Made by a program: the position numbers and the translations under genes
NCBI RefSeq assembly: GCF_055900595.2
Contig: NZ_CM148325.1
Length of the DNA: 64,000 nt
Reading direction: 5' to 3' (one strand)
The notes under the pieces: generated by a model
Databases searched by the model: none
What the model saw: the letters and a program-made list of their open reading frames with translations, nothing else
What the model was told of the DNA's origin: nothing
Shown: positions 4,950-52,487 of the stretch, in pieces
Position numbering within the stretch: the first letter of the stretch is position 1
Layout: each line of letters opens with the position of its first letter

Positions 4950-5201
4950 GAAACTGATTTTCGCTATTAATAATCAGGGTATTTTTGCGTGAGATGTCGG
5001 TAAACATGATGTAGCTCTTGCCACTCATGACCAATCGCAGTATCTTTCTCCCGCGTCTGCAAAATCAGGCGTCGGGATTAGCCTCCTGAAGAAATCTTAT
5101 CGGCGACACATGACGCGCCAGCGTCTTTTTTTGTGTTGTTCGCACGGTTACACCTCAATGGTGGGCCGGGCGGGGGCGTCGCAAGACGCGCCAGTGTCCG
5201 A

Positions 5202-5295
5202 TAAGGCTGGTAAGGCTAACCCTGCCCGGTTCCACCACCCGCGAGATTAGCCTCTCCGGTGGTGGCTTGAACACCCACTTATCGGAGGTTGCCCT
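5202..5295 (+). promoter_or_regulatory. Conserved leader upstream of paralogous gene (second copy 51929-52022) with two mutually exclusive hairpins
   Basis: About 80 percent identity between the two leaders; stems GGCTAA/TTAGCC and CCACCACC/GGTGGTGG; one compensatory A-T to G-C change in copy 2. Confidence 0.35.
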
Positions 5296-5766
5296 ATGGC
5301 TACAATCCTCACCACTGACAGCGATTTACTCGATCTATTGACCGTCCCCTTCAATGCCACCACGGATTTCACTGTCCTTGCTGACTACTGCGCCCGCTTT
5401 GCCGAAACCCTGATTGAAACCGACGATCCCGCGCTACGACTGGCGCTCTGCGGGCGGCTTCACGCGGCTCTTGCGCTATTGCAACCCACACTACACGACC
5501 CCATCCCACCGCATCTTACCGAAAGCCTGACCGTGGATACCCTTCCCGCCACACCAGAGCACTTTATTTCCGAACCTGATTCCTTGTGCGAATACTGCCT
5601 CGCACTACTCCAGCTTCTGCTGGAACGTCCGGCGGAACCAAAAATGGAGCAAACCCTGACCGGGCTGCTGTGTGAGCTGGTCTGGTATTTCACGGAAGGA
5701 CTCAAAGCCCCGCGCTGGATGCGTACCGCCGACGGCGTAAAATTTATCAGCGAGGTGGCCGCATGA
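5296..5766 (+). CDS. Hypothetical acidic protein (paralog at 52023-52487)
   Basis: 156-aa ORF with GGAGG RBS 7 nt upstream; second diverged copy in window. Confidence 0.6.
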   Translation: MATILTTDSDLLDLLTVPFNATTDFTVLADYCARFAETLIETDDPALRLALCGRLHAALALLQPTLHDPIPPHLTESLTVDTLPATPEHFISEPDSLCEYCLALLQLLLERPAEPKMEQTLTGLLCELVWYFTEGLKAPRWMRTADGVKFISEVAA

Positions 5767-5903
5767 TGCAACAGGACTGGCATTCCGCCGACATTATTGC
5801 GGTGCTGAAAAAGCGGGGAACGCCTCTGGCGGCACAGAGAAAAACTCATTGCGGAAGCGCTGTAAATATCGCCAGAAATCATCTGGTCCTCAAGGTACTT
5901 TGA
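5763..5903 (+). pseudogene. Ner/Nlp-like DNA-binding protein, N-terminal remnant
   Basis: MMQQDWHSADIIAVLKKRGTPLAA resembles the Ner/Nlp N-terminus, then frame degenerates; overlaps integrase fragment. Confidence 0.35.
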
Positions 5904-6103
5904 TAGCAAAGGCAAGCTGGCTGGTTCAGTCCGGAGTCTCTCTTCTTGCACTTAAAGAGATGGGAGGATGGGAAACTCTCAAAAAGGTTCAGAGATACGC
6001 TCACCTTTCAGCCGGGCATCTCACCGAGCACGCAAGCAAAATCGGCACGATCATAAGTCGCAATGGCACAAATACGGCACAGGAGGAAGCGTGGTGTATT
6101 TAA
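5849..6103 (+). pseudogene. Tyrosine integrase C-terminal fragment
   Basis: LLALKEMGGWETLKKVQRYAHLS is a typical recombinase C-terminus with catalytic Tyr region; no N-terminal domains upstream. Confidence 0.6.
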
Positions 6104-8176: not shown

Positions 8177-8497
8177 TATCCAATCTCCTGCCGTATGTTT
8201 TCGTCTATAACTGTCCACTACCGTTAATAATCGCATATAACCACGGGTATTGCCCATCGTAAAATGCCATTTAAAGATTCTGCGTGATGGCTCACCATCC
8301 ACCGCGCAAGATACCCGGTGCGTTTGGCTGATAATCCGCAATTTGGTTGAAACCGTCCTGGAAACCTCAAGTTTGGAAACCAGCGACTTGCATCGTAGCT
8401 TTGCCATTCGGCGGTCATAGTTACTGCTATATCCCTTTATTGGCGAGACCTGCGAGAGGTTTTGTTGTTCGAATATATAAAGGTGAATAAAGGTAAT

Positions 8498-9298: not shown

Positions 9299-9419
9299 GT
9301 TGGTTCAGTTGGTTCAGTTGGTTCAATTTGTAAAGATCGTTGTTTTTATTATGTTTTTTCTAAAATATTGAACCAACATCAACTCATTTTGAACCAACAC
9401 AGCCCAGCTCTGAACCAAC
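9299..9419. repeat. Iteron cluster A: 3 tandem GTTGGTTCA then 3 spaced TGAACCAAC (crr/ori-like)
   Basis: Exact 9-mers at 9299, 9308, 9317 and inverted copies at 9369, 9390, 9411. Confidence 0.8.
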
Positions 9420-9521
9420 AACACAGCGATAGCTTTGTGATTGGCCCGTTATTTTCTGGCTGATATTTGAGCGTATAACAGTGTTATACAGTGATATACT
9501 GTATGGATATTACTCACTGAT

Positions 9522-17602: not shown

Positions 17603-20362
17603 TCATTCTTCAGATGAGTTATAATCTCCTGGCTGGTAATTGAGTACATAAACGTTTATTTGTCGTCCCTGAATACGTGGTGATTTTCTTTGGTATCCAC
17701 GACCGCTGTTTGGTGGGGTTAGCATCCCGGCTTTTTTCAACACTTCAGCAAACTGTTTTGCGTTGAAACCACATGCGATCTCCTTTTCAAATGTGGCCGG
17801 GAATGTGTAGAAAATCATTGGGCTTTCGTCATGTTCTCCACGCTGACGGTATCCGGCTAAATCTTTGATGGGCAAATCTGCCGGGCTGTATGGAAATGGT
17901 GCAAAACGGCTAAGCCCATAGGCATTAAGAAATGCCTCCGTTTGTTCAATAATCTGCTGATGTTCTTTGTTACCTGTGCCGAACTCGCGCAACCATGCGT
18001 TATAGCTGTGCTGTATCGCATCACGGCATGTCTGAGCATCCCAGCCTGTTACAACCTCGCCTAACAGCAATGCGGCCTCCAGAATGGCAAATCGCGCGGC
18101 TACACGGTGAACCTGCTCACCATAATCGGATGGGATCAGGCTTCTCCATCTGCTTTCGCAATCACGAACGGTTTTAATAGCCTGTTGCTGGTGGTCTGCC
18201 AGCCATTTAATCCACTCACGCCCGGACGCGCCGTGGTGATGCTGGTAAGCGTCTTTCAGTGCGTCTGCGTGCTGTTTTCCGTTCTGGTAATCGTGAAAGC
18301 GTACTGCTTTACTCAACGGAATATTCAGCAGTCGCACCAGTTGCCCGGCTTTGGTTTTTCGCCCGGAAGTAGCGATAAATGTTTCTAAATCCATTTCTCC
18401 GGTGCTGATTGCCACTGTACGCCAACGTTTTAGATCCCGGTTTCCACCATCTTTAGCGCCTTGCAGTTTCCCTACACCGTTAAATAACGCATAGGCAGAC
18501 TGTGAAACGCTGACAGGATCAGCGCCCTGACCAACTTCATCAAGCGGCATTAGTCCGTCATTGTGGGCGGCGGCCTCATTTGCCAGCCCCAGCGCGGTTC
18601 CGTACCACGTCAGCCGCAGTAAATCAGGGTTGCCGTATAAGCTGCTCGCCACGTTTGCCGTGGTGGTCTTACCTGCGCTCGACTGCTCATAGAAATGAAT
18701 GCCGAACCCGTCAGCGCCCACCAGCCCAATCAATGGCGCTGCCAGTGCTGCGCCGATCCCGGTCATCATTGAATAGTTACCAAAGGCCAGACGCGCCACG
18801 TTATCACGCCAGCTTTTCGCGCTCCCTGAGACGGTATATCCGGCTGCGGCTGAGCTTCTCCCGCTGAACAGCACAGGATTTTCAGGTGTTCCGATGATTT
18901 CCCCATCAGGCATGATGTACGCTCCGCATTGCCAGCCAGTGGCATGAGCAACACGCCACAATTCACGAGAGCCACTGCGTTGTAGCCAGTCTGCCAGTAT
19001 TGCTCTGAGGCTGCTTTTGGTCGTGACATTTACCCCACCAGCTTTAAGTGTGCGCCATCCTTCACGTTCACCAATATCAGCCAGTGGAATGGCAGCGGTT
19101 GTCGGCGTTTCAGAACCAAACGACAGCCAGCGAAGAATGAGATACTGGTCTTTATCGTCTCTGCCAGTACCGATAACGCTTAACGGAGAACATAACCAGC
19201 TTTCGTTATTGATGATTTCTCCACTCTGGCTGTCAGCTCTCGGAGATACCCAATAAATACCATCCTCGCGGCTTTCTATTCTTGGTTTCAGTGGGTCGGT
19301 ATCCATAACCTTAAAATCGCTTCCCTCAATGGTCTGTGGCTCCTGTTTCACGCCATTACCCTGTGGTTGGTACATTGACTTATTGAACGCTTCTGTGGCG
19401 CATTTAATGCCGTGTTTTTGGTGGTAATCATTCCAGTCTGCTTTGTGATCTGTCGGGGGTAATGCCACCCATCCAGAAACAGATAAAGCTGCTTTTTCTG
19501 CTGCTATTCTCCCCGTGTTTTGTCTTCCTTCGCTGTGGTCGTTATCCGCAGCAATGATGATTTGTGCTGAAGGATATTTATCCCGCAGTACCTGGGCGAC
19601 ATATAACAGGTTCCCGGCATCAATCGCCGCCACTGTCAGCGCCTCTGGACGAATTAAATGGGCAGATAATGCCGTTGCCAGCCCTTCTGCGATTAAGATG
19701 CTCTGTGTTGTTTCTGGTGCGTTTATGGCGTGATATGCCCCCCGCTTTGCTGAACCTGTCAGGAGTCTTTTTTCACCATGTGAGGTAATAGTCTGTGCTG
19801 CTGTGACTGCGCCGGATTTATCCACCAGCGCCAGCAACAGAGATCCATCGGGCAACACGGGGAATGTAAAATCACCTACCCCTTTCGCAACCAGATAATC
19901 AGATTTGCCGTTTACAGCCTTTCTGCGCATGTCATCAAACTGACGGGAAAACGTATCCCGTCTTTGTTGTTCGTCCTTCTCTGCCCTTTTCAGGCGCTCC
20001 TGTTCGCGTCGCTGGCGCTCGGTTTCCAGTTGTTCCCGTTTCTGGCTGGTGGCTTCTGGTGTTTCCGTTGTCCGGTAATCAATACCCAGAACATCAGCGG
20101 CAAGAAGCGCCGCCTCTGTTGTGTCGCAGTTATTTACGCGTTTAATTAAATCCAGCCCATCACCAGCGCCGCACTGATTACAGATGAAGCTACCGCGCCC
20201 GTTGTCATCGAACCGGAATCGATCTTTGCCCCCACATGCAGGGCAGGGAGCATGACGGCGCGGAGAGTCAGGGACATTTATGTTCAGGCAGCCCAGCACA
20301 TGAGGCCAGTTGTTTTCAGACGCACTGATAACCTGACGGATAAGATCAATGTTTCGCATCAC
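17603..20362 (-). CDS. P4 alpha-like DNA primase-helicase
   Basis: 919 aa; zinc-finger CPACGG...CNQCG, TOPRIM-like acidic core IIIAADNDH, Walker A SSAGKTT. Confidence 0.85.
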   Translation of the reverse strand: MMRNIDLIRQVISASENNWPHVLGCLNINVPDSPRRHAPCPACGGKDRFRFDDNGRGSFICNQCGAGDGLDLIKRVNNCDTTEAALLAADVLGIDYRTTETPEATSQKREQLETERQRREQERLKRAEKDEQQRRDTFSRQFDDMRRKAVNGKSDYLVAKGVGDFTFPVLPDGSLLLALVDKSGAVTAAQTITSHGEKRLLTGSAKRGAYHAINAPETTQSILIAEGLATALSAHLIRPEALTVAAIDAGNLLYVAQVLRDKYPSAQIIIAADNDHSEGRQNTGRIAAEKAALSVSGWVALPPTDHKADWNDYHQKHGIKCATEAFNKSMYQPQGNGVKQEPQTIEGSDFKVMDTDPLKPRIESREDGIYWVSPRADSQSGEIINNESWLCSPLSVIGTGRDDKDQYLILRWLSFGSETPTTAAIPLADIGEREGWRTLKAGGVNVTTKSSLRAILADWLQRSGSRELWRVAHATGWQCGAYIMPDGEIIGTPENPVLFSGRSSAAAGYTVSGSAKSWRDNVARLAFGNYSMMTGIGAALAAPLIGLVGADGFGIHFYEQSSAGKTTTANVASSLYGNPDLLRLTWYGTALGLANEAAAHNDGLMPLDEVGQGADPVSVSQSAYALFNGVGKLQGAKDGGNRDLKRWRTVAISTGEMDLETFIATSGRKTKAGQLVRLLNIPLSKAVRFHDYQNGKQHADALKDAYQHHHGASGREWIKWLADHQQQAIKTVRDCESRWRSLIPSDYGEQVHRVAARFAILEAALLLGEVVTGWDAQTCRDAIQHSYNAWLREFGTGNKEHQQIIEQTEAFLNAYGLSRFAPFPYSPADLPIKDLAGYRQRGEHDESPMIFYTFPATFEKEIACGFNAKQFAEVLKKAGMLTPPNSGRGYQRKSPRIQGRQINVYVLNYQPGDYNSSEE

Positions 20363-20717
20363 CGTACCCCACGTGGTCTATAGCGTTTGCGATATGGCTA
20401 ACCAGCATCTGCCACTTGGTTATTCCGTAATCAGTCAGCATGCCATCATTGTTTAGCCACATATCAAATTCAGCGGTTGTCGCAAGTTTCCACTTATCGC
20501 CGTGGGCAGTCCTCATTGCTGGGTACATGAATGCGCAAATCAGATCACAAACATCTGACGGCTTCAGAGATGTAGTAATGATGCGTCCCTCTGGCGTCTG
20601 AATTGCCATTTTCTCTTCACCAGTAGAATGAAGGTTATGAATCCACACAGCACCAGCAATCTTTGCCACCTGCTCTCCGATTGCGGAGCTAAGCGCCATT
20701 TCTGCATTTTCACGCAT
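20346..20717 (-). CDS. Hypothetical protein
   Basis: 123-aa ORF in operon with primase. Confidence 0.45.
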   Translation of the reverse strand: MRENAEMALSSAIGEQVAKIAGAVWIHNLHSTGEEKMAIQTPEGRIITTSLKPSDVCDLICAFMYPAMRTAHGDKWKLATTAEFDMWLNNDGMLTDYGITKWQMLVSHIANAIDHVGYGDAKH

Positions 20718-21051
20718 GAGAACCTCCCGCTACAGTTGCGCCCATGTCATTAACCATGCTTTGCCATATCTCACGCCCGACGTCAGTCAATCCGTCCTTA
20801 GTGACGCAACGATCAAGAAGCTCGATCCCCACGGTTTCCCACTGCGGGTAGAACACTTTCATGGCTGCCAGTGTGTAGCTATCGATCAGGCTGCGAACGC
20901 CTTTTACTCCATTGACGATTTCCACACGGACGGCCTCGCCGTCCGCATCAACCATGAAATAGTCCCCGCCGCTGGTGGAGGTAATGTGGTTATACAGTGC
21001 CGACGCATACTTATTTGCCAGCGCATTCAGTCGGAAATTTTTAGTAATCAT
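20710..21051 (-). CDS. Hypothetical protein
   Basis: 113-aa ORF, 8-nt overlap with downstream gene. Confidence 0.45.
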   Translation of the reverse strand: MITKNFRLNALANKYASALYNHITSTSGGDYFMVDADGEAVRVEIVNGVKGVRSLIDSYTLAAMKVFYPQWETVGIELLDRCVTKDGLTDVGREIWQSMVNDMGATVAGGSHA

Positions 21052-21061
21052 GGTTCCATCC

Positions 21062-21664
21062 TCAGTGCGTCACTGGTTCCGCTGGCATGCCGTTTTCATT
21101 CAGTTCAGCTATAAAGCTGTTGTGAAGTTCAGCAAGCGTTTCACGACCAAATGGAGTCAGTGCTCCTTGTTCCACATCCATCATGGCTCTGTAGAAAATG
21201 ATGGCGCGTTCTGTGCCAGACTCGATGCCAAAACGTTCTATCATCGCGCCCTCAATGTTGTTTGCCATAGCGAGGCGCTCTGCTACTGGATACAGCGGCA
21301 TGGCGACGATGCCGTTGGAATAAACAGCCACTTCGGAAGGGTTGCCAGTATCATCAATGATGCTGACAGTGCCGTTTTCCTCTCTCATTTCCAGCATGAA
21401 TACTGTTGCGATCAGCCATCTCCACATAATGACGTTATGCTGTGATGTGTAATCGAAATATCCCTGGTTGCCGCCATCGGCTATAGCGAGATGTATTGAC
21501 ATACCTTCATCTGGTTTATCGTCATAATCCCCGGCATCCAGACGATTTACGGCATCAATATATGAGACGGCCTCAACGCGTTCTGTCATGCCATCGTTGC
21601 TGCGGTACATGATGTTTACGCCGTCAGGCGTTGCTTCTGCATGGAAAGTTAAGAAATTATTCAT
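21062..21664 (-). CDS. Hypothetical protein
   Basis: Start moved to internal ATG (MNNFLTF...) giving ATG/TGA overlap with upstream ORF. Confidence 0.5.
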   Translation of the reverse strand: MNNFLTFHAEATPDGVNIMYRSNDGMTERVEAVSYIDAVNRLDAGDYDDKPDEGMSIHLAIADGGNQGYFDYTSQHNVIMWRWLIATVFMLEMREENGTVSIIDDTGNPSEVAVYSNGIVAMPLYPVAERLAMANNIEGAMIERFGIESGTERAIIFYRAMMDVEQGALTPFGRETLAELHNSFIAELNENGMPAEPVTH

Positions 21665-21878
21665 GTTTCGCCTCGCCTGAATGATTCTGTAACTCATATT
21701 TGCCCAACAATTCGTCTGCTTCCTGAATAGCTTCTGGTACGCCATTGAGCAGTGACATAACCGCGCCAATCATTAACTTGTCTCTGTTGCTGGGGCTGGC
21801 CCCTTCAAGCCAGAACCCTAAAACAGTCTGAACCTGTTCGATGCGACATTGTGCTTCAATGAGCTGGATGTTGGTCAT
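21657..21878 (-). CDS. Hypothetical protein
   Basis: 73-aa ORF, overlapping start/stop chain. Confidence 0.4.
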   Translation of the reverse strand: MTNIQLIEAQCRIEQVQTVLGFWLEGASPSNRDKLMIGAVMSLLNGVPEAIQEADELLGKYELQNHSGEAKHE

Positions 21879-22138
21879 TTCGCACTCTCCGCATCGATTA
21901 AACTGATATCTATCAGAGAGGTAACTTTTTGTAGCCAGCTAGTGATTACTGTCGCCTGTTCCCCTCCCACCGATGGAAGAATCTCATTCATCACATGAAG
22001 CAGACCTGTGCGCGCCCTGGTAAGCCGTTCAGTCGTGCGATCTGCAAGAGTGAATGTGTCTGGATATGGCTCTTCACGGCTCAGCAATGATTCAATTTCC
22101 AGCTCACACGGATGACGATAAATTAAGTTGATATTCAT
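21875..22138 (-). CDS. Hypothetical protein
   Basis: 87-aa ORF, overlapping start/stop chain. Confidence 0.4.
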   Translation of the reverse strand: MNINLIYRHPCELEIESLLSREEPYPDTFTLADRTTERLTRARTGLLHVMNEILPSVGGEQATVITSWLQKVTSLIDISLIDAESAK

Positions 22139-22386
22139 TTTTCACCACCAAGAATTACCAGCTCTGCACGAGCATCGTTAACCAAAGATGAGCACGCTTT
22201 AATCGCATCCACGACATCAGCAGCGTCCATTTCTTCAGCCGAAAGACTGACAGCAACCAGGACAGCCGCTGCTTGCTCGATTAATTGAAGTGCGGACGTA
22301 AGTCGAGGGGCATTAATTGAGTTATTCATTGGTTGCCCCCGTTTTTCCTGGCATTTCGCCACCTTCCAGCAGGAAATGAACGTCAC
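22135..22386 (-). CDS. Hypothetical protein
   Basis: 83-aa ORF; true start may be internal. Confidence 0.35.
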   Translation of the reverse strand: MTFISCWKVAKCQEKRGQPMNNSINAPRLTSALQLIEQAAAVLVAVSLSAEEMDAADVVDAIKACSSLVNDARAELVILGGEK

Positions 22387-22540
22387 GAACGGCGAGATCC
22401 AATATCGCGAGTAACGCCTTCAGTCTTTCGTCTCGTGAGGGAGAGTTGCTCACCAGAATGTCGTTAATCACTTCTGTCAGTGTGATGATCTGGCTTGTGC
22501 GTTCGAGGGGATCCATATGCACATCGTAGGTTTTAATCAT
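22322..22540 (-). CDS. Hypothetical small protein
   Basis: C-terminal 72 aa of the long 355-aa track ORF; GGAGGTG RBS before ATG at 22540. Confidence 0.35.
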   Translation of the reverse strand: MIKTYDVHMDPLERTSQIITLTEVINDILVSNSPSRDERLKALLAILDLAVRDVHFLLEGGEMPGKTGATNE

Positions 22541-22874
22541 GTGCCACCTCCATGCGGATACGACCAGCAAAAAAGCAGACGTGATCGCGCACCAGAGAAC
22601 GGCGAGCATCGCGTTCAGACTCGGCAGCAATATGATGAATTTTGGCGGTAATTGTCGGGCAATCGCGGCGAACTGCGGCGATAATCCAGATAAATTGCGG
22701 TTTTTGGGTAGGGGTAGTAGCCAGCATGTGGCAGCCTCCTTGTACTGGGAATTCTTCCCACCACCGGAGCTGCGAAACTCGCTGGTGGTGGACTGAACAG
22801 AGTTCGCAGTACCGGCGTACAAGGAAACCGGCCAGCCTTTCGGCTGCCCTGTCCAGCCCACCATAATTTTGCAA
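22533..22874 (-). CDS. Hypothetical protein
   Basis: 113-aa ORF with ATG/TGA overlap at 22533-22540. Confidence 0.35.
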   Translation of the reverse strand: MQNYGGLDRAAERLAGFLVRRYCELCSVHHQRVSQLRWWEEFPVQGGCHMLATTPTQKPQFIWIIAAVRRDCPTITAKIHHIAAESERDARRSLVRDHVCFFAGRIRMEVAHD

Positions 22875-23385
22875 GCGACGCGGATTATAACCACATCACT
22901 GAAAAAAGTGTGAGTCTGGCTAACGGCACAAAAAAAGACGCTCGGCGCGTCATGTGTCGCCTCGTACATTTCCGGGCTGCGAAACCCGGCACCCGTTTTA
23001 TGAGGTGCCTTATAACCATAAACCGTGTTGCCGCATAACGGCAAGCTCTTTTTTATGGACTCCGAAAACTCACTATTGGAAGAACCAGAAGCACAGTACA
23101 TCGCGCTCATTTCGTTAACGTCACGCGCGTGGACGAATGTTTTTGTGGAGTCACTACACGAGCGGAAGACATCATCTACGACCAGAAATTTTCTGGCGCA
23201 GCCGCTGACCTTCTCAAGGCTAATATCATCGCCCGAGATTTCTGGTATGGTTAAGGCATCCGTTCCGGCCACCAGCAAATGATAAACTTTGCTTGTATCT
23301 GCTGTATTAATGCCTGACTTTGCCGTCATATTTCTGGATTTTGGCGACATACCAGCCAGTGAAAATGTCTTCTTCTGGATGGGTA

Positions 23386-23565
23386 TCATTGGTTAACCTC
23401 CGCGAACTCCTTCATGAAACGCGCCAGCGGTTGTACGCATGGCGATTGATACCCGTCGCGATAAAACGTCACTCGGTTGTGAGACACGCTTTCGACAGTA
23501 ACGAGTGCTCCGTGGGCATCTTTGTAGCGTTTTTGAGGTTGTGGTGTTCCTGTCGGCTTAAACAT
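23386..23565 (-). CDS. Small hypothetical protein
   Basis: 59-aa ORF from internal ATG overlapping antirepressor stop. Confidence 0.35.
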   Translation of the reverse strand: MFKPTGTPQPQKRYKDAHGALVTVESVSHNRVTFYRDGYQSPCVQPLARFMKEFAEVNQ

Positions 23566-24391
23566 GGACCGCCTCCAGACGCTTGGCGAGCCAGCGTTGC
23601 GACAGGCGGGTGAGTTCTCCTTTACGCTGCTCATATTCCATGCCCATATCAATTAACGTGATATTGGTGCTTTCGAGATATGAGAGGTGCTCAAGCTGTT
23701 CTGCGTTCATATGGTCGCGAGGTTCGCCAGAATAGCCATTTATCCGCGCCCACTGTTTAGCAGTTAGCCCACCAAGAACGATACGAGAAATCATATTGCT
23801 CTCGTTTGTGTAGTGGTGTTGCTGCGTCGTTTTACCCATCTCGGCACGGGCCATATTCAGCGCATCGCACATTGGCTTAAAGTTGTTTGCGGCACTGATA
23901 CGGGCTTTTAGCTGGCGACGATAGCGGGCGGCGATTTCAGGCACGCTACGCTGTAATTCTTCCTCGCACTGGATGAAATAACGGCGGATAGCGCGCCCCT
24001 GATCATTGCGTTCGATCATTGCCAGTTCTTTCGCCATTCCGACACTTAACAGATAGTCTTTGCCGGGTCTGCCAGACTGCTTAATCTTGCTGTAAGCCGC
24101 GTCATTCGGGCTTTTCCCCAAATTTGGGGAAATTGTTTTATGGACTGAGTAATCGTGCCCAATGGTGAAGTCATATTCAGAGATGCGATCAGTGATCCAT
24201 GTAGAGAAGTCTTTTCCCACGCCCAACGCTTTGTGTAACGCTTTTGCGCTAACAATATTGGTTTCACGCCCACCGATATGACCAGGAATAACCGGGACAA
24301 TTGCGGCAAATTCATTACCGTTAATTGTGCCCAGAGAGGCGTTCAGATGAGGGGCAGCCTCAGAAATTAATCTGCTTTTTTCGATGTTCAT
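23558..24391 (-). CDS. Phage antirepressor-like protein
   Basis: 277 aa; KALHKALGVGKDFSTWITDRI...LLSVGMAKELAMIERNDQGRAIRRYFIQCEE resembles AntA/KilAC-type antirepressors. Confidence 0.5.
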   Translation of the reverse strand: MNIEKSRLISEAAPHLNASLGTINGNEFAAIVPVIPGHIGGRETNIVSAKALHKALGVGKDFSTWITDRISEYDFTIGHDYSVHKTISPNLGKSPNDAAYSKIKQSGRPGKDYLLSVGMAKELAMIERNDQGRAIRRYFIQCEEELQRSVPEIAARYRRQLKARISAANNFKPMCDALNMARAEMGKTTQQHHYTNESNMISRIVLGGLTAKQWARINGYSGEPRDHMNAEQLEHLSYLESTNITLIDMGMEYEQRKGELTRLSQRWLAKRLEAVHV

Positions 24392-24403
24392 TTTCAGTCT
24401 CCG

Positions 24404-24835
24404 TTAGGCGGCGTTAAACGCGTCCGGGTAGAGTTTCAGAATGTCGGCAATTTCCTGCTGAGAAAGTCCGTTGTGATCATTTATGTTCGCAAGATGGTTA
24501 ACATGAGTGATCACTTTCAGAACATCACCACGGCAGGAGAAACGGTAGCGAAGGTGTGTTCCGATACCATCAGGATTCTTTTCGTCGATACGCTCCAGAG
24601 TGATTCCAAGCTGGCGTTCTAACTCTGTTGCATAGTTACGACCAGAAGACAGACGGCAGTAGCGAAGAATGTCATTTTCTGTCCATCCCTCTATACCAGT
24701 ACGCAGCATATAGACTCTGGCACGATGCTTTTTCGGTGTGCGCTTTGGTGCTTGAAGGGATTTTGTAAGGGGCGTAACATCAGATACACGAATATCTGAA
24801 TTAGCCGCCTGTAATGGGCGGTTTTTCTTTTCCAT
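24404..24835 (-). CDS. Hypothetical protein
   Basis: 143-aa ORF between antirepressor and alpA. Confidence 0.45.
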   Translation of the reverse strand: MEKKNRPLQAANSDIRVSDVTPLTKSLQAPKRTPKKHRARVYMLRTGIEGWTENDILRYCRLSSGRNYATELERQLGITLERIDEKNPDGIGTHLRYRFSCRGDVLKVITHVNHLANINDHNGLSQQEIADILKLYPDAFNAA

Positions 24836-25038
24836 CAGGCCACCTCGTCTCTAGATTCTAATATACACTTCTCAATCCATTCATCTATTTCAGACTCAAC
24901 AAAAGCAATTGCCCGACTTCCAATTTTTACCTGTTTAGGGAACCTCCCCTGACTAATAAGACGATAAATCCATGCTTTGCTATAACCAGTTCGCCTTTGA
25001 ACTTCAGAGAGACGAATTAATGAATTGTAATTAGCCAT
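24835..25038 (-). CDS. alpA: AlpA-family transcriptional regulator / excisionase-like
   Basis: 67 aa; LIRLSEVQRRTGYSKAWIYRLISQGRFPKQVKIGSRAIAFVESEIDEWI is the AlpA HTH pattern. Confidence 0.8.
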   Translation of the reverse strand: MANYNSLIRLSEVQRRTGYSKAWIYRLISQGRFPKQVKIGSRAIAFVESEIDEWIEKCILESRDEVA

Positions 25039-25466
25039 TTATTAATATCCTGTACTAATGACGCAATAACCCCCTCCTGCAACGAATGGCGAGAGTTTTA
25101 TTTGCGTCAAATGTCGAATACGCCAAAGACCACAATATGAAAAACATATTGCGGTCTTTTATAAAAGATAGTCAGATTGTTTTGGTTTGTTTGCTCCACA
25201 AGGGTAGAGCTACCCTGCATTTCGGCAGGATCACGCTATTAGGCGTGACATCCAGTAGTTTTAAAGAACAATTGCGCTTTGTCAGCGCCAAAGCCTGTTA
25301 AAGAACATTCCGCTTTGTCAGCGACGTAGAAGGCTCAATACACCTTCGTTTATAAAAGAGCGATTGCCCTTCTCCAGGGCTAACTGTTAAATAGCAATCC
25401 TCTGTGAGTTTTTATCAATCTACTCCCCTATACTTTAGTAAACCTCTGTATACTTGTCCAGTTGTT

Positions 25467-26681
25467 TCATGCGTGTTTTTCAAACACCATATGCACCACA
25501 TTTCCGCCATGCTCGAGAGAATCCATATAGTCGGCATACCATTGAAGCATCTCCCGCCTTCCATCCAGATATTGCGCATGGTTGTATGTGCCACGAATTG
25601 AGTTCTTATCAACGTGAGCGAGCTGCGTTTCTATCCACGCGGTGTTATAGCCCTGCTCATGCAAAATCGTACTCATAGTGTGCCGGAACCCATGACCAGT
25701 TACACGTCCAGCGTAGCCAATGCGCTTAAACACTTGGTTTATGCTGGCCTCGCTCATTGTTTTCCTTGGATCATTGCGCCCGGGAAACATAAGAGGGTAA
25801 TTGCCTGTTATTTCTCTAATCTTCCCAATAAGCGAAAGAGCCTGCTCAGACAATGGCACAATATGAGGCCGCCGCATTTTCATACGTGAAGCGGGTATCT
25901 CCCAGATAGCCTTGTTGAAATCAATTTCATCCCATAATGCGCCACGTAGTTCGCCAGTCCGCAAGCCGGTGATAATCAGTAGACGAGCCGCCATAACAAC
26001 CAATGCGCTTCCTGAGTAACTGGACAATGCCTTGAAAAAATCAGGTAATTCTTTGGCTGTAAGGAAAGGGTAATGATTAGATTCATGGCCTTGCATCGCG
26101 CTAGTAAGGTCTGGTGCAGGGTTATACTCTGCGCGACCAGTGACTATTGCATAGCGGAAAACTTCCCCGCACCGTTGCCTCACTTTTTTGGCTTTTTCTG
26201 TAGCACCGCGCCCCTCGATGCGACGCAGCACATTCAGAAGTTCAAGTGGTTTGATTTCGGCGATGGGTTTTTTGCCAATGTAAGGGAACACATCTTTGTT
26301 GAAGGCTTCGAGGATGTCTGAAGCATAACCAGCAGACCATTTTTTTAATTTGCTGCTGTGCCACTCAAGGGCAATATCTTTGAAGGTGTTGTTTAACTGC
26401 GTTTCCCGGGCAATCTTTTCCTCTCGTTTCGCTTCCATCGGATCGATACCACCAGCGATACCTCTTTTCGCATCTTCACGTTTTGCCCGAGCATCGGCTA
26501 GAGTAACCTCAGGATAAACACCTAGTGCCAATAGCTTCTCTTTACCAGCTACACGATATTTAAGTCGCCAGTATTTACCTCCATTAGGTTTTACCAAGAG
26601 ATACAAACCGCCACCATCGGCCAGCTTGTAAGCCTTCTCTTTTGGCTTGGCTGTGTCTATTTGACGGGCATTGAGTTTCAC
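25467..26681 (-). CDS. P4-type tyrosine integrase
   Basis: 404 aa; MKLNARQIDTAKPKEK... N-terminus, C-terminal HGFRHT...H..Y catalytic region; adjacent to tRNA. Confidence 0.9.
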   Translation of the reverse strand: MKLNARQIDTAKPKEKAYKLADGGGLYLLVKPNGGKYWRLKYRVAGKEKLLALGVYPEVTLADARAKREDAKRGIAGGIDPMEAKREEKIARETQLNNTFKDIALEWHSSKLKKWSAGYASDILEAFNKDVFPYIGKKPIAEIKPLELLNVLRRIEGRGATEKAKKVRQRCGEVFRYAIVTGRAEYNPAPDLTSAMQGHESNHYPFLTAKELPDFFKALSSYSGSALVVMAARLLIITGLRTGELRGALWDEIDFNKAIWEIPASRMKMRRPHIVPLSEQALSLIGKIREITGNYPLMFPGRNDPRKTMSEASINQVFKRIGYAGRVTGHGFRHTMSTILHEQGYNTAWIETQLAHVDKNSIRGTYNHAQYLDGRREMLQWYADYMDSLEHGGNVVHMVFEKHA

Positions 26682-26713
26682 TTGGGGGTACCTCCACTAA
26701 ACCGAACAGCAAA

Positions 26714-26734
26714 TACCCCCATAAGTACCCCCAT
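26714..26734 (+). repeat. TACCCCCATAAGTACCCCCAT motif in int promoter/attL region
   Basis: Second copy of motif at 6207-6227. Confidence 0.4.
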
Positions 26735-26846
26735 CTGACCGTAGATTTTGAGGGACTTTAGTAGACGTCAAAAGACGAACGGGGCTTTAATACGCGGATT
26801 ATAAGGGGTTTTGAAAGACTTTAGTAGACTTGGGGAGATGTTTGAA

Positions 26847-26922
26847 TGGTGCCGATAATAGGAGTCGAACCTACGACCTTCGCATTACGAATGCGCTGCT
26901 CTACCAACTGAGCTATATCGGC
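26847..26922 (-). tRNA. thrW: tRNA-Thr (anticodon CGU)
   Basis: Reverse complement GCCGATATAGCTCAGTTGGTAGAGCAGCGCATTCGTAATGCG...TATCGGCACCA; anticodon loop TTCGTAA. Confidence 0.9.
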
Positions 26923-41000: not shown

Positions 41001-42981
<1,981 letters not shown>

Positions 42982-43106: not shown

Positions 43107-43247
<141 letters not shown>

Positions 43248-43250
<3 letters not shown>

Positions 43251-43745
43251 TAAAATGATACGCTCTCCGGCACTAAAATCCGTTACGTCCCCCGCCCAAT
43301 CGATGGGATATAACCCTTTCGCGACATCACGATGGAACGTTGAGAATGGCCAATCACTTACCTGCTTTACCCAGCCATGTTTTACTGGATTTATATAAAT
43401 ATAATCAACATGATGGCGATAATCTTTGGTGTTGCGGATGGCATGCTCCCAAAAACGCGGTTGCCAGATATTTTTCAATCCGCAAACATGGGTGAATTGC
43501 TTTTTAATCTCCCGCCAGCGCGAGGAAAAATCATCATCGCTTTCGGGTAATGTCCAGATACAGTGCATATGCTCCGGCAAAACGACCCAGGCGTTAATTT
43601 CAAAAGGCCTGTCTCGCTTAACGTTAATAATGGCGTTACGGAGCATCTGTAACTGAGCGGTCAAAAGTTGGCTTCGACGATTCCGTAAATTTACCGTGAA
43701 AAACCATGTTCCCCCCTTTATATAAAAACGACGATATTCAGACAT
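43248..43745 (-). CDS. rayT: REP-associated tyrosine transposase
   Basis: 165 aa MSEYRRFYIKGGTWFFTVNLRNRRSQLL...; flanked by REP clusters. Confidence 0.9.
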
Positions 43746-43834
43746 AGCGACTCCTTTTTCTCAACGGTAAGAAGAAAAGGAAAAGTCGACAATGCGGGTG
43801 TGTTATATCGGGAAAGCGGCTCGCAAAATATTCG

Positions 43835-43926
43835 CAGACTCGTAGGCATGATAAGACGCGCCAGCGTCGCATCAGGCATCGGCGCATAACCGCCGGATGC
43901 GGCGTACACGCCTTATCCGCCCTACA
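43835..43926. repeat. REP cluster flanking rayT
   Basis: GTAGGCATGATAAGACGCGCCAGCGTCGCATCAGGC and CCGGATGCGGCGTACACGCCTTATCC units. Confidence 0.8.
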
Positions 43927-44680
43927 AAATCGTCTCTTCTGTCAAAATCCTGCGCGCGCCCAAAAAGTGATCCTGCCAGAAAGGTTCAGCTAACCGACTT
44001 ACCCGAATGGTTTCCCCGGTGCGCGGCGACTCGATAAACTGACCGTCTCCCAGATACACGCCCATATGGTCGGCAATCTCGCGGCTGTGAATATGGAAAA
44101 ACAGCAAATCTCCCCGGCGCAGGTCGTTATTTGCCACAATGGTTGCCCGACGGTAGTGATACATCTCATTGGCCGTGCGCGGGAGTTTCGCCTCGAGGAT
44201 CTTGTTGTAGGCATAAAAAACCAACCCGCTACAGTCGAAGCCTTGATCGGGTCGCGTGCCACCCCAGACGTATGGCTTGCCAAGCTGCTGCTCCAGACGG
44301 TGAATCGCCACTTCGGTGATATTATGCAGGTGGTTACTGCTGAGGAAATGATTGTTTTCCGCCAGCGCCTGCCAGCGTCTGTCACTCGCCTTGAGCGGCG
44401 CAGGAAACCATTCTGGATGCTGTTTTATCTGTTCGCGGTTGTGTTGCCGCAGTGCCCTTCTGCTTTCAGCATTGCCTTCCACAATATAGCTGGCCTGCTT
44501 TTTCAGATGAATTTGGTACTGTTTTAATAAACGCGCACGGTTTTGCATCCGCTGGCGGGCGGCGTAGCTGAAAGAGATATGTGATGTGGTGGCGCTGGCG
44601 AGTAAAGGGAGCAAAACGCATAACGAAAACACGCCTGGATGCAGAAATCTGCCGAGCAAGAACGAAGACATGAAGGACAT
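43922..44680 (-). CDS. yafL: NlpC/P60-family peptidase YafL
   Basis: Signal peptide plus Cys-containing DCSGLVFYAYNKIL motif. Confidence 0.85.
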   Translation of the reverse strand: MSFMSSFLLGRFLHPGVFSLCVLLPLLASATTSHISFSYAARQRMQNRARLLKQYQIHLKKQASYIVEGNAESRRALRQHNREQIKQHPEWFPAPLKASDRRWQALAENNHFLSSNHLHNITEVAIHRLEQQLGKPYVWGGTRPDQGFDCSGLVFYAYNKILEAKLPRTANEMYHYRRATIVANNDLRRGDLLFFHIHSREIADHMGVYLGDGQFIESPRTGETIRVSRLAEPFWQDHFLGARRILTEETIL

Positions 44681-44971
44681 AAACCGGCTGAATGAAGGTG
44701 AGAATTTTAAAAGACCGGAGGAGTAAACGGGATTATTAATTGCTTATTTGCATATTACTATTGAGGTTTCATAATCTTAGGAAATAAATGATACATGCGC
44801 TTTTCGGACTAATGAAAACTGCCCTTGTGCTAAATTTGTAAACCCTGCGCCGACAGGCTTGCGTAAAACTCTTTTGGTGATAATGTGAGCCTTCCAAATC
44901 CAGACTATTCCGATTTGGGATCCATTTTGCCGTCCTGGCGTGTGTAACCGTTTTATCAAGGAATAAGCAGT

Positions 44972-45712
44972 ATGCGTAAAATCGCATTAATTCTTGCGAT
45001 GTTGTTGATCCCGTGCGTTTCGTTTGCCGGTTTGCTGGGCAGCAGTAGCTCGACCACGCCAGTGAGCAAAGAGTATAAGCAGCAGTTGATGGGATCCCCT
45101 GTCTACATCCAGATCTTCAAGGAAGAACGTACGCTCGATCTCTACGTCAAAATGGGCGAGCAATATCAACTGCTCGACAGCTATAAAATCTGTAAATATT
45201 CCGGCGGCTTAGGGCCAAAACAGCGTCAGGGCGATTTCAAAAGCCCGGAAGGGTTTTATAGCGTCCAGCGTAATCAGTTAAAACCAGACAGCCGTTACTA
45301 CAAAGCGATTAATATTGGATTCCCCAATGCCTATGACCGTGCGCATGGTTATGAAGGGAAATACCTGATGATCCACGGCGATTGTGTTTCCATCGGCTGC
45401 TACGCGATGACCAATCAAGGTATTGATGAGATCTTCCAGTTCGTTACCGGCGCGCTGGTGTTTGGTCAGCCGAGTGTGCAGGTAAGTATTTATCCGTTCC
45501 GCATGACCGACGCCAACATGCAGCGCCATAAATATTCCAACTTTAAGGACTTCTGGGAGCAACTGAAGCCGGGCTACGACTACTTTGAACAGACCCGTAA
45601 GCCACCGACCGTTTCTGTGGTCAATGGCCGTTACGTCGTCAGCAAACCGTTGAGCCATGAAGTGGTGCAGCCACAGCTGGCATCAAACTACACGCTCCCC
45701 GAGGCAAAATAA
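44972..45712 (+). CDS. yafK: L,D-transpeptidase-family protein YafK
   Basis: 246 aa [20 protein letters not shown]...; [14 protein letters not shown] catalytic region. Confidence 0.9.
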
Positions 45713-46450
45713 GCGCCATTCGCCTGGCATAATCTTTTGCCAGGTTTCATTGCCCGTCAGCGGCTGTGTCGCAATCACCGTGACCACATCATTCGGTGTG
45801 GTCTGCGAGCTGAAGTCGATTTCCACATCCTGATCCAGCAACGTTGCCACGCCAAACGGCGCGCGGCGGGTGATCCAGTGCAGATTGGTCGAGCAATACG
45901 CCATTACATAGCGTCCGTCCGAAAGTAGCATGTTGAAAACGCCCTTCTGCCGCAGTTCATCCGCCAGTGAGGCGATATATTTAAACACTGCCGCCATGTT
46001 GCCCGGTGTGCGCGGGTAACGCTGCGTTAATTTATTCAGGAGCCAGCAGAAGGCTTTTTCGCTGTCGGTTTCGCCTACCGGGCGGAAGTTGCCAGTTTCC
46101 AGTGATTTGTAGCCCGTCAGTTGTCCGTTATGGGCATAAGTCCAGTTACGCCCCCATAACTCGCGGGTAAACGGATGAGTATTTTCCAGTGCCACCTCGC
46201 CCCGATTCGCCTGGCGAATATGAGCAATTACCGAGCAGGATTTGATTGGATAGTCCTGGACCAGTTTGGCGATAGGGGAATTAAAGCTGGGTTGCGGATC
46301 TTTAAATGTGCGACAGCCTTTACCTTCGTAAAAGGTAATGCCCCAGCCATCTTTATGTGGCCCGGTTCCACCACCACGCTGCACCAGACCGGTGAAACTA
46401 AAGCAGATATCGGTAGGGACGTTAGCGCTCATCCCGAGCAATTCGCACAT
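45683..46450 (-). CDS. yafJ: Class II glutamine amidotransferase YafJ
   Basis: Start set at MCELLGM (N-terminal Cys nucleophile), GGAGG RBS. Confidence 0.9.
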
Positions 46451-46510
46451 GGGTAACCTCCACAACAGCGAGGGCGCATGGCCCCCGGCGAAGATTGATT
46501 TAAGAATTTT

Positions 46511-46655
46511 CAGGTCGGATGCGGCGTGAACGCATTATTCGGCCTACGGTTCGGGTACAGATTTGTAGGCATGATAAGACGCATCAGCGTCGCATCAGGC
46601 ATCAGCGCACAAGTGCCGGATGCGGCGTAAACGCCTTATCCAGCCTACGCCAGAC
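46511..46655. repeat. REP cluster
   Basis: GGATGCGGCGTGAACGC and GCCGGATGCGGCGTAAACGCCTTATCC units. Confidence 0.8.
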
Positions 46656-50587: not shown

Positions 50588-51343
50588 GTGCCTGGTTTGA
50601 AGATTACGCTTTTACAGCAACCACTGGTGTGGATGGATGGTCCTGCCAACCTGCGTCATTTTGATCGTCAACTGGAAGGTATTACCGGGCGCGATGTGAT
50701 CGTTCTACCGGAGATGTTTACCAGCGGCTTTGCCATGGAAGCGGCAGCTTCGTCGCTAGCACAAGATGACGTAGTGAACTGGATGACAGCTAAAGCGCAG
50801 CAGTGCAATGCGCTGATTGCAGGCAGTGTTGCATTACAAACGGAGTCTGGTTCGGTTAACCGCTTTTTGCTGGTTGAGCCGGGCGGCACGGTACATTTTT
50901 ATGATAAGCGTCATCTGTTCCGAATGGCAGATGAGCATCTGCATTATAAAGCGGGCAATGCGCGAGTGATTGTGGAATGGCGCGGCTGGCGTATTTTGCC
51001 GCTGGTGTGCTACGACTTACGTTTTCCGGTGTGGTCGCGCAATCTCAACGATTATGACCTCGCCCTGTACGTTGCCAACTGGCCTGCTCCGCGCTCTCTG
51101 CACTGGCAGGCATTGCTGACAGCCCGCGCGATTGAGAATCAGGCGTATGTAGCGGGATGTAATCGCGTCGGCAGCGATGGCAACGGCTGCCATTATCGCG
51201 GTGACAGCCGGGTGATTAATCCACAGGGCGAGATTATCGCTACTGCCGACGCGCATCAGGCAACGCGCATTGATGCGGAGCTGTCGATGGCGGTGTTACG
51301 GGAATATAGAGAAAAGTTTCCGGCATGGCAGGATGCGGATTAG
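50588..51343 (+). CDS. yafV: Omega-amidase/C-N hydrolase YafV
   Basis: GTG start 9 nt after AAGGAG; LPEMF (Glu) and [11 protein letters not shown] (Cys) nitrilase-superfamily motifs. Confidence 0.9.
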
Positions 51344-51389
51344 TTTAGGTTGTGGTGAGTGGGGGTTGTGTTTAGGGCCGGGGAGAGTT

Positions 51390-51784
51390 GGGGTATGACT
51401 ACGAAAGCCCGCTCTCCTGCGACCACTTTTATCATAGGAGTGTGGAAGTGCTTTTCCATCAATCGCGATGACGTCTTTGTCATCTGAAGAATGACATTCA
51501 CGCATCCGGTTAATAAAGCATTCGTGAAATTTTGCAGGACTGATACATGATACAACTCTGGCAATAGTATCGTGAACAGGAATACCATTTTCAAAATCAC
51601 CATATTGCTTCAAAAAATCGAGATGAGTTTCCCCGAAATCCTCTATATATTCCCAACCTTCTGCTCCAGAAATAACGGCACAAATAGTCAACAGTAGAAT
51701 ATCCGATAATTTATGTTCCACTTTCCAGGCTTGTCTGTAATCGGGGATAATAGAAATATGTTCCATCAATTTTTTAAGTTCCAT
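51390..51784 (-). pseudogene. H-repeat-associated (ISAs1-family) transposase, N-terminal fragment (yafF-like)
   Basis: [45 protein letters not shown]... then frame degenerates after about 130 aa. Confidence 0.7.
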
Positions 51785-52022
51785 TTTGTTCTCCTTAATT
51801 ATGTAAGGAGTATTTGATCATGTATAAGCAATAAAAAACAGCTTCAGGTAATGAGGAATATCTCAATTTTTAAACATAAAATGCGAATTGTTTAGTACAA
51901 AAAAGCAGCGTTACGTGATCTTTCCCTGCTAAGGCCGGTAAGGCTAACCTCGTCTGGTTCCGCCACCCGTGAGATTAGCCTCTCCGTTGGCGGTATTAAA
52001 ATCACTTAGTGGAGGTTGCCTT

Positions 52023-52487
52023 ATGGCTACAATCCTCCCCCCTGATTATGATTTACTGTCCATTCCTTTCAGTTCTGCCACCGATTTAACTGACCTGGCC
52101 GATCACTGCGATCGTTTCGCTGAAACTCTTATAGAGTGTCACGATCCGGCGCTGAAAATGGCGCTATATGGGCGTCTTCGCGCCTGTCTCGCCATTCTGC
52201 ATCCCACGCTGAACGAGCCGATTCCGTCCCATCTGGTGGACAGCCTGACGCTTGATGATTTGCCGACGTCGTTTCCGCGCTTTGAACCAGATGCAGAACA
52301 GTTGTGTCAGTATTGCCTGACGTTGCTCCAGCTTCTGACGGAACGGGCGCAGGGATCGGAAACACAACAATCCCTTACTGGATTACTGTGCGAACTGGTC
52401 TGGTTCTTTGCAGCAAAACTGAAAGCACCACGCTGGCTGCATACTGCTGATGGCGTGGTCTTTATCGAAGATCTGATCGAACCATAA
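52023..52487 (+). CDS. Hypothetical acidic protein (paralog of 5296-5766)
   Basis: MATILPPDYDLLSIPFSSATDLTDLADHCDRFAETLIE... with GGAGG RBS and conserved leader. Confidence 0.6.
   Translation: MATILPPDYDLLSIPFSSATDLTDLADHCDRFAETLIECHDPALKMALYGRLRACLAILHPTLNEPIPSHLVDSLTLDDLPTSFPRFEPDAEQLCQYCLTLLQLLTERAQGSETQQSLTGLLCELVWFFAAKLKAPRWLHTADGVVFIEDLIEP

Follow-up and report, generated by a model that had tools for sequence, protein, structure and literature searches.

The locus and its annotation

The window analysed here is a stretch of 64,000 nucleotides from contig NZ_CM148325.1 (NCBI RefSeq assembly GCF_055900595.2). It carries two paralogous genes for small proteins that are both acidic, as had been noted, with a pI of 4.4, and the stretches upstream of them (window 5202–5295, copy 1, and 51929–52022, copy 2) are identical at 76 of 95 aligned positions. 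The 80% identity given in a preliminary description of this DNA is thus reproduced, and the leader is indeed better conserved than what follows it (between the copies, identity falls to 65% in coding DNA and 59% at the protein level), since it is constrained by RNA structure and by RNA–RNA pairing. The neighbourhoods are also as first reported: a truncated Ner/SfsB-like ORF (5763–5903) and an integrase C-terminal remnant lie downstream of copy 1, and an ISAs1/H-repeat transposase remnant and Rhs genes border copy 2.

An Rfam scan of the whole window at gathering thresholds returned isrK and C4 at 5053–5242, and both again on the minus strand at 22781–23008. The interval 5202–5295 is the 3′ third of a C4 RNA followed by the target sites a2 and b2 with the Shine–Dalgarno sequence, and not a self-contained leader; it splits a larger RNA in two and misses 5053–5201, where the IsrK/seqA-like element and the first two-thirds of the RNA gene are located. 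Three modules are present in the window, comprising two addresses among the complete ones and one orphan target (Table 1). RefSeq annotation of such stretches, which gives nothing or “ash family protein”, can be corrected to an RNA gene with its targets, the next gene being called “hypothetical”.

Table 1. Positions of the features discussed, in window coordinates unless stated otherwise.
Feature	Position	Strand	Details
Promoter-like site TTGCCA-17-TATCTT	5018–5046	+	Predicted by consensus scan; precedes the IsrK/seqA element
IsrK / P4 seqA-like element	5053–5131	+	Rfam RF01394, 66.5 bits (gathering score 50)
Target a1	5078–5084	+	In hairpin loop, inside the IsrK/seqA-like element
Target b1	5096–5103	+	Inside the IsrK/seqA-like element
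Intrinsic terminator	5112–5125 (stem)	+	Stem plus T run, after a1/b1 in the IsrK/seqA-like element; terminator scan
C4/CI-type antisense RNA gene	5154–5242	+	Rfam RF01695, 71.1 bits (gathering score 45), E = 7.5e-12
C4 basal stem	5159–5175 with 5220–5237	+	C4 fold
C4 hairpin 1	5176–5189	+
C4 hairpin 2	5190–5211	+	Loop holds b′ (UCCGAUAAG, 5197–5205)
a′ AGGCUAA	5213–5219	+	Single-stranded in C4; complementary to a2
a2 hairpin	5232–5265	+	Outer stem CCACCACC (5232–5239) / GGUGGUGG (5258–5265); inner stem GAGA/UCUC
Target a2 UUAGCCU	5247–5253	+	In loop of the a2 hairpin; complementary to a′
Target b2 CUUAUCGGA	5278–5286	+	Overlaps Shine–Dalgarno GGAGG (5284–5288); complementary to b′ UCCGAUAAG
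Acidic-protein gene, copy 1	5296–5766	+	ORF; 156 aa; first gene of the controlled operon
Shared first codons	5296–5316; 22707–22727 (−); phage P4 (L067) ~8343–8363 (−)
Truncated Ner/SfsB-like HTH gene fused to integrase C-terminal remnant	5763–5903; 5849–6103	+
Primase of P4-like element	17603–20362		919 aa
Icd-like gene	22533–22727	−	NF033153, E = 3.6e-20; start codon 22725–22727
Copy 3, complete module of different specificity	22725–23008	−	Rfam C4 81.1 bits, isrK 69 bits
Copy 3 b2 GUACAAGGA	22737–22745	−
Copy 3 a2 UUCGCAG	22770–22776	−
Copy 3 C4	22781–22868	−
Copy 3 IsrK	22931–23008	−
AlpA-like gene of P4-like element	24835–25038
Integrase of P4-like element	25467–26681
ISAs1/ISEc1 (H-repeat) transposase remnant	51296–51929	−	NCBIfam transpos_ISAs1, E = 3.4e-32, profile positions 1–96 of 314
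Copy 2, truncated module	51930–52022	+	3′ part of C4 only, then targets
Copy 2 C4 remainder	a′ 51941–51947; 3′ arm up to 51966	+
Copy 2 a2 hairpin	51960–51993	+	a2 51975–51981
Copy 2 b2 and Shine–Dalgarno	52005–52015	+
Acidic-protein gene, copy 2	52023–52487	+	154 aa, 59% identical to copy 1

The RNA module of copy 1

Copy 1 belongs to the C4 and IsrK families. It matches the curated C4 covariance model in sequence and structure above the gathering score, and the upstream a1 and b1 sites, which lie within the isrK match, carry the same address; at a sister locus, c4-a1b1 (RF03163) is matched. The complete C4 sequence folds with z = −4.17, and its long basal stem enclosing two hairpins is backed by covariation in an alignment of 35 leaders (see below). 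By itself, the 94-nt stretch does not exceed shuffled sequence in folding stability (z = −0.43 in copy 1, −1.83 in copy 2). Copy 1 is an ordinary, nicely preserved member of a long-known system that a curated Rfam model finds. The promoter-like site upstream of IsrK, of which the −10-like GTATCTT is kept at the 5′ edge of the 35-leader alignment, is presumed to be the start of the leader transcript.

Downstream of C4, the complements of a′ and b′ are found as a2 and b2. The latter overlaps the ribosome-binding site of the first gene: its last three letters are the GGA of GGAGG, and that motif stands 7 nt ahead of the start codon (ATG, 5296). Calculated duplex energies are −14.2 kcal/mol (b′/b2) and −9.3 kcal/mol for the cognate pairs of copy 1, and −4.2 kcal/mol or weaker for heterologous pairs.

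Two mutually exclusive hairpins had been proposed for the leader. The alternative pairing is genuine, in that 5232–5237 pairs either with 5159–5164 in the C4 basal stem or with 5260–5265 in the outer stem of the a2 hairpin, and since the 3′ arm of C4 is also the 5′ arm of the a2 hairpin, the two structures exclude each other. However, comparative data back only one hairpin inside the interval; its competitor is the C4 basal stem, the 5′ arm of which (5159–5175) lies outside 5202–5295 and is deleted in copy 2. One position shows three-way covariation, with U/C in the 5′ arm, A/G in the shared arm and U/C downstream. The compensatory change described for the longer stem is real (A5234–U5263 in copy 1, G51962–C51991 in copy 2), and the same stem in copy 2 also has a disruptive change that had escaped notice, from C–G to C·U at 51966/51987. 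Overlap of the 3′ half of the C4 P1 stem with the 5′ half of a downstream hairpin is frequent in this family (Weinberg 2010; PMC2864571 supplement). A terminator scan detected no terminator-like site at the a2 hairpin (5232–5275), and the Shine–Dalgarno sequence lies outside it. We infer that this hairpin presents a2 in its loop for a kissing contact with a′, and it may also make target accessibility depend on how the primary transcript folds or is processed.

Covariation across related loci

A scan of one genome per species gave 58 acidic-protein loci, about 35 of which carry the whole 270-nt leader directly upstream; these 35 leaders form the alignment on which the pair counts are based. Covariation over further homologs had been suggested as a check of the preliminary description, its absence counting against a structured leader; the result was the opposite, as covariation is very strong. 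RNAalifold independently yielded the IsrK hairpins and the C4 fold from this alignment. The three C4 helices are paired in 99.7–100% of cells, with compensatory changes at 15 of 27 pairs. Pairing reaches 99.2% for a′/a2 and 95.7% for b′/b2 (12 of 16 pairs compensatory overall, 6 of 9 for b′/b2), and 100% for a1/a′ and 94.8% for b1/b′, with six compensatory pairs each. For the C4 helices, a′/a2 and b′/b2 together, 98.8% of cells are paired and double changes occur in 27 of 43 pairs; none of 500 shuffles paired C4 and targets as well, and slid partners were only 32–46% paired. The outer and inner stems of the a2 hairpin are paired in 94.2% of cells (6 of 12 pairs compensatory). Covariation thus establishes the C4 fold and all four intermolecular pairings.

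The addresses themselves vary: nine types of a and 15 of b occur in 24 combinations among the 35 loci, and they change together in all three places. G–U pairs are frequent on one strand only (at single positions in, for example, 34 of 35, 26 of 35 and 17 of 18 sequences), which fits an RNA read from the plus strand. In a wider set of 122 distinct modules, including 80 viral contigs, the median complementarity of cognate sites is 7, 7, 8 and 9 nt for a1, a2, b1 and b2, compared with 4–5 nt for non-cognate sites, and b2 ends in the GGA(G) of the Shine–Dalgarno sequence in almost all modules. Among 118 modules, 99% place a2 in a hairpin loop; the stem has at least 6 bp, and its 5′ arm is the 3′ end of C4.

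Alternative explanations

The preliminary description saw in the conserved stretch a mobile module with a cis-regulatory RNA or DNA element. Regulation at the RNA level and the mobile module stand; the cis-acting leader does not. A purely cis-acting switch, in which two exclusive hairpins of the 5′ UTR would set termination or sequestration against expression of the acidic gene without any RNA acting in trans, could draw on the alternative, covarying pairings of the C4 3′ arm with their three-way position, and on the proposal that C4 might sometimes act in cis (Weinberg 2010; PMC2864571 supplement). We nevertheless consider it improbable, as the 94-nt stretch alone shows no excess stability over shuffled sequence, the a2 hairpin has neither a terminator-like site nor the Shine–Dalgarno sequence, and such a switch leaves unexplained both the three-way covariation of a1/a′/a2 and b1/b′/b2 over 120–190 nt and the match to a family whose P1, P7 and P4 members are proven to repress in trans. 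A cis switch is at best an additional layer on the antisense mechanism.

The same conservation could in principle reflect coding constraint on a small protein, namely the “Ash family” ORF that PGAP calls in some genomes, to which window ORF 5110–5250 corresponds. For E. coli 042, RefSeq does list an “ash family protein” where the homologous stretch lies, and some database ORFs are N-terminally extended through it with PF10554, but single-nucleotide indels are common in the alignment (10 of 35 sequences have a gap at column 217, and 17 of 35 at column 249) and, because they would shift the frame, the PF10554 reading frame is not conserved. Substitutions are paired so as to keep helices rather than codons, and P4 immunity is assigned to the RNA in the literature (PMC4825925; PMC3632133), so that a protein product is a very improbable explanation. 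Equally improbable is a DNA-level site, either for recombination or attachment or as an origin of replication or transfer, with the repeats serving as protein-binding sites or cruciforms. That the copies sit near integrases, whole or remnant, at tRNA hot spots would suit such a site; the one-strand G–U pairs, which would be mismatches in DNA or on the other strand, would not, nor would the fixed orientation of the module and its fixed distance to the start codon, or the occurrence of the same module form in lambdoid phages far from any att site.

A proposed mechanism and its precedents

We therefore favor an antisense RNA, and put the probability at about 0.88 that the stretch is part of a C4/CI-type immunity module as found in P1 and P7 (c4-icd-ant) and in P4 (seqA-CI-seqC). 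Transcription, processing and repression at the copy 1 locus we infer by analogy with these elements. The transcript would start at about position 5050, and the IsrK/seqA-like element, with a1, b1 and the intrinsic terminator, would be transcribed first. Read-through past the terminator would lead into the C4 RNA (5154–5242), which would be excised, as in P1 and P4, to give a stable product of about 80 nt, with RNase P making its 5′ end. On the same or on sister transcripts, a′ (AGGCUAA) and the loop sequence b′ (UCCGAUAAG) would then pair upstream with a1 and b1, and downstream with a2 in its hairpin loop and with b2. Pairing at b2 would cover the GGA of the Shine–Dalgarno sequence and block translation of the acidic gene, and the genes behind it would be silenced through polarity or premature termination. 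Secondary sources give Rho-dependent polarity for P1 and premature termination for P4. The 7 nt of a and 9 nt of b would together form an address, each element being immune only to itself. The a1b1/a2b2 logic for P1 and P4 was reportedly published between 1990 and 1995.

That IsrK corresponds to seqA and C4 to the CI RNA, with a′, b′, a1b1 and a2b2 and one site over the ribosome-binding site, is documented (PMC3632133; PMC4825925; PMC2864571 supplement). Processing of C4 by RNase P is described in PMC3378863, which cites Hartmann 1995, and a stable processed RNA of about 77–80 nt is known for P1, P7 and P4 (PMC3378863; PMC4825925). Because the short, terminated IsrK RNA of Salmonella can act positively in trans (PMC4825925), the a1/b1 element may be a decoy or activator besides a target.

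Among the closest precedents is phage P4 (seqA, CI RNA with seqB, seqC), where the two Rfam families follow each other as in copy 1 and a1/a′/a2 and b1/b′/b2 are arranged alike; it also has an a2 hairpin on the 3′ arm of the RNA and a b2 fused to GGAGG, as well as a first ORF that starts MAT(T)L(T). The address sequences differ: P4 has a1 GUGAGAA, a′ UUCUCAC and a2 GUGAGAA, and b1 UUCACAGG, b′ CCUGUGAA and b2 UUCACAGGAGG, followed by the ATG. The first gene of P4 encodes a small Icd-like protein, with epsilon and the alpha primase next, whereas the acidic-protein islands have a 156-aa four-helix protein first, and in intact ones a Ner-like HTH gene, an EFASI RNA and an Integrase_1-type recombinase gene follow, unlike in P4.

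The immI region of P1 and P7 (c4-icd-ant1/ant2), judged from published descriptions, is alike in several respects: the operon leader is processed into the antisense RNA that represses this operon; a2 and b2 are the partners of a′ and b′; the ribosome-binding site of the first gene is covered by b2; and a1/b1 lie upstream as competing sites (PMC2864571 supplement; PMC8546580). In P1 this RNA controls genes for a cell-division inhibitor and an antirepressor, in contrast to the acidic protein of copy 1. Salmonella Gifsy-1 (isrK-orf45-anrP with STnc1160) shares read-through of the IsrK terminator, a stable processed RNA, the operon organization and control of the first ribosome-binding site by RNA pairing (PMC4825925), but its short IsrK RNA is described as a trans activator on the long isoform (PMC4825925), and the downstream products are an antirepressor and, indirectly, the AntQ antiterminator. 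We found the module in 187 phage records, mostly Stx phages, ahead of antirepressor genes.

Copy 2 is a target-only relic

The two copies had been described as paralogs, but they are not equivalent: the RNA module is complete in copy 1 and truncated in copy 2. The minus-strand ORF adjoining copy 2 is the N-terminal third of an ISAs1 transposase. ISAs1/ISEc1 homology occurs in more than 5,000 E. coli genomes and breaks off at query position ~229–233 (window 51928–51932), a junction common to only 18 genomes. Homology of copy 2 to copy 1 starts abruptly at ~51926–51930 (by alignment; nhmmer matches begin at query position 159). What remains is a′, the a2 hairpin, b2 with the Shine–Dalgarno sequence and the gene; promoter, IsrK, hairpin 1, b′ and the basal-stem 5′ arm are missing. 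As an Rfam scan of copy 2 gave no C4 match even at E ≤ 10, the C4 part is a fragment only. Copy 2 is a relic left by ISAs1/H-repeat insertion or deletion, and it sits in the aspV hot spot, adjoining yafV and Rhs genes.

The a2 of copy 2 is identical to that of copy 1, and its b2 differs at 2 of 9 positions, which leaves 7 Watson–Crick pairs, 1 G–U pair and 1 mismatch with the b′ of copy 1 and gives a duplex of −7.8 kcal/mol, as against −14.2 kcal/mol for the copy 1 cognate. Judged from these sequences, control of copy 2 in trans by the copy 1 RNA is possible but uncertain, since copy 2 has no cognate C4, its b2 has changed and the duplex is weaker. The copy 3 RNA is clearly heterologous on copy 2 targets (−4.9 kcal/mol or weaker).

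Copy 3 in a P4-like element

The third module, absent from the preliminary description, is complete and lies ahead of an Icd-like gene. Its cognate duplexes have energies of −14.9 and −10.5 kcal/mol, and its pairing with copy 1 targets is −4.2 kcal/mol or weaker. The window would thus be a compact natural example of how addresses of 7 + 9 nt keep co-resident mobile elements from cross-talk. A 40-nt insert with TTATAAT is present between IsrK and C4 of copy 3 and could be a second promoter for its C4. The surrounding element (17603–26922, minus strand) is apparently intact and lies at tRNA-Thr (thrW, 26850–26922); it is labeled P4-like on account of its integrase, AlpA-like, Icd-like and primase genes, and also has several small ORFs.

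The acidic protein and the islands that carry it

The acidic protein is modeled as a four-helix bundle with a short C-terminal β-hairpin (AlphaFold2 mean pLDDT 90.7). It has no match in Pfam, NCBIfam, PHROGs or PADLOC, its profile found nothing below E = 0.1 among PDB sequences, and structure matches were generic helical bundles without an informative fold. About 630 homologous clusters occur in Enterobacterales, and a profile search of 1.84 billion representatives returned only a small acidic-protein family of 232 members. Three longer matches were considered as fusions and rejected; they are ORF calls that read through neighboring C4 RNA genes. Two long database ORFs, P0222 and P0236, run from one C4 region across the acidic domain into another C4 region and on into the beginning of a further gene (MTTTPTPSHP...), which suggests that some genomes may carry tandem C4 modules, before and after the acidic gene.

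Unrelated first-gene families behind C4 modules have their first codons, MAT(T/I/V)(P/L)T, in common: the acidic family, two Icd-like families and a 46-member phage family, and P4 too. The module therefore reaches a few codons into the ORF, with the recombination joint inside the gene. The acidic gene holds the slot that Icd or antirepressor genes occupy behind other C4 modules, and by this analogy the acidic protein may be the first effector released once immunity is lifted.

At copy 1 the rest of the operon is deleted and, with the operon truncated, the switch may control nothing useful now. In intact relatives, the core order is acidic protein, Ner-like HTH, a gap of ~0.9 kb, Integrase_1 recombinase, P4-type integrase and tRNA. 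A Ner/SfsB-like HTH_35 protein is encoded immediately downstream of the acidic gene in 29 of 49 loci; an Integrase_1-type tyrosine recombinase is present in 20 of 49, and a P4-type integrase, on the opposite strand, in 22 of 49. The cargo upstream of the module is variable and includes AbiE, RT_UG5-nitrilase, DUF4747, AAA proteins and PAAR/Rhs toxins; the module marks the regulatory end of a recurrent type of defence/toxin island. No primase or Icd gene lies within 6 kb of the acidic-protein module in the 58 loci searched, so these islands do not count as P4-like satellites as usually understood. Nor do they match ROD21-like (EARL) islands, the core of which is a pilin, a MobA/TraD pair and an RDF, not a C4 module.

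The island type headed by the module and the function of its first gene are so far undescribed, and this first controlled gene holds some discovery potential. A tentative reading, which we regard as rather unlikely as it stands, is that the C4/IsrK switch was taken over by undescribed, tRNA-integrated Enterobacterales islands of ~10 kb that are primase-less, phage-responsive satellites or mobilizable elements with the acidic protein as first effector. If so, the acidic protein could trigger excision or mobilization, acting as an antirepressor-like or anti-host factor.

Other structured RNAs were also detected. One intact sister island (L063) was scanned for EFASI and STAXI; an EFASI RNA (RF02957, 100 bits) lies at 9389–9517 (plus strand), in the gene-free gap between the Ner-like and Integrase_1 genes, and STAXI was not detected in that island. 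EFASI is a bioinformatically defined motif upstream of integrases, and STAXI is its usual partner. In the rayT–lafU region of the window, the isrC sRNA is matched over its full length (RF01387, 145 bits) at 42387–42509 on the minus strand, with three naRNA4 (REP-derived) matches nearby (43110–46645, minus strand). In K-12, isrC presumably belongs to the CP4-44/flu locus, and the copy in the window lies away from there.
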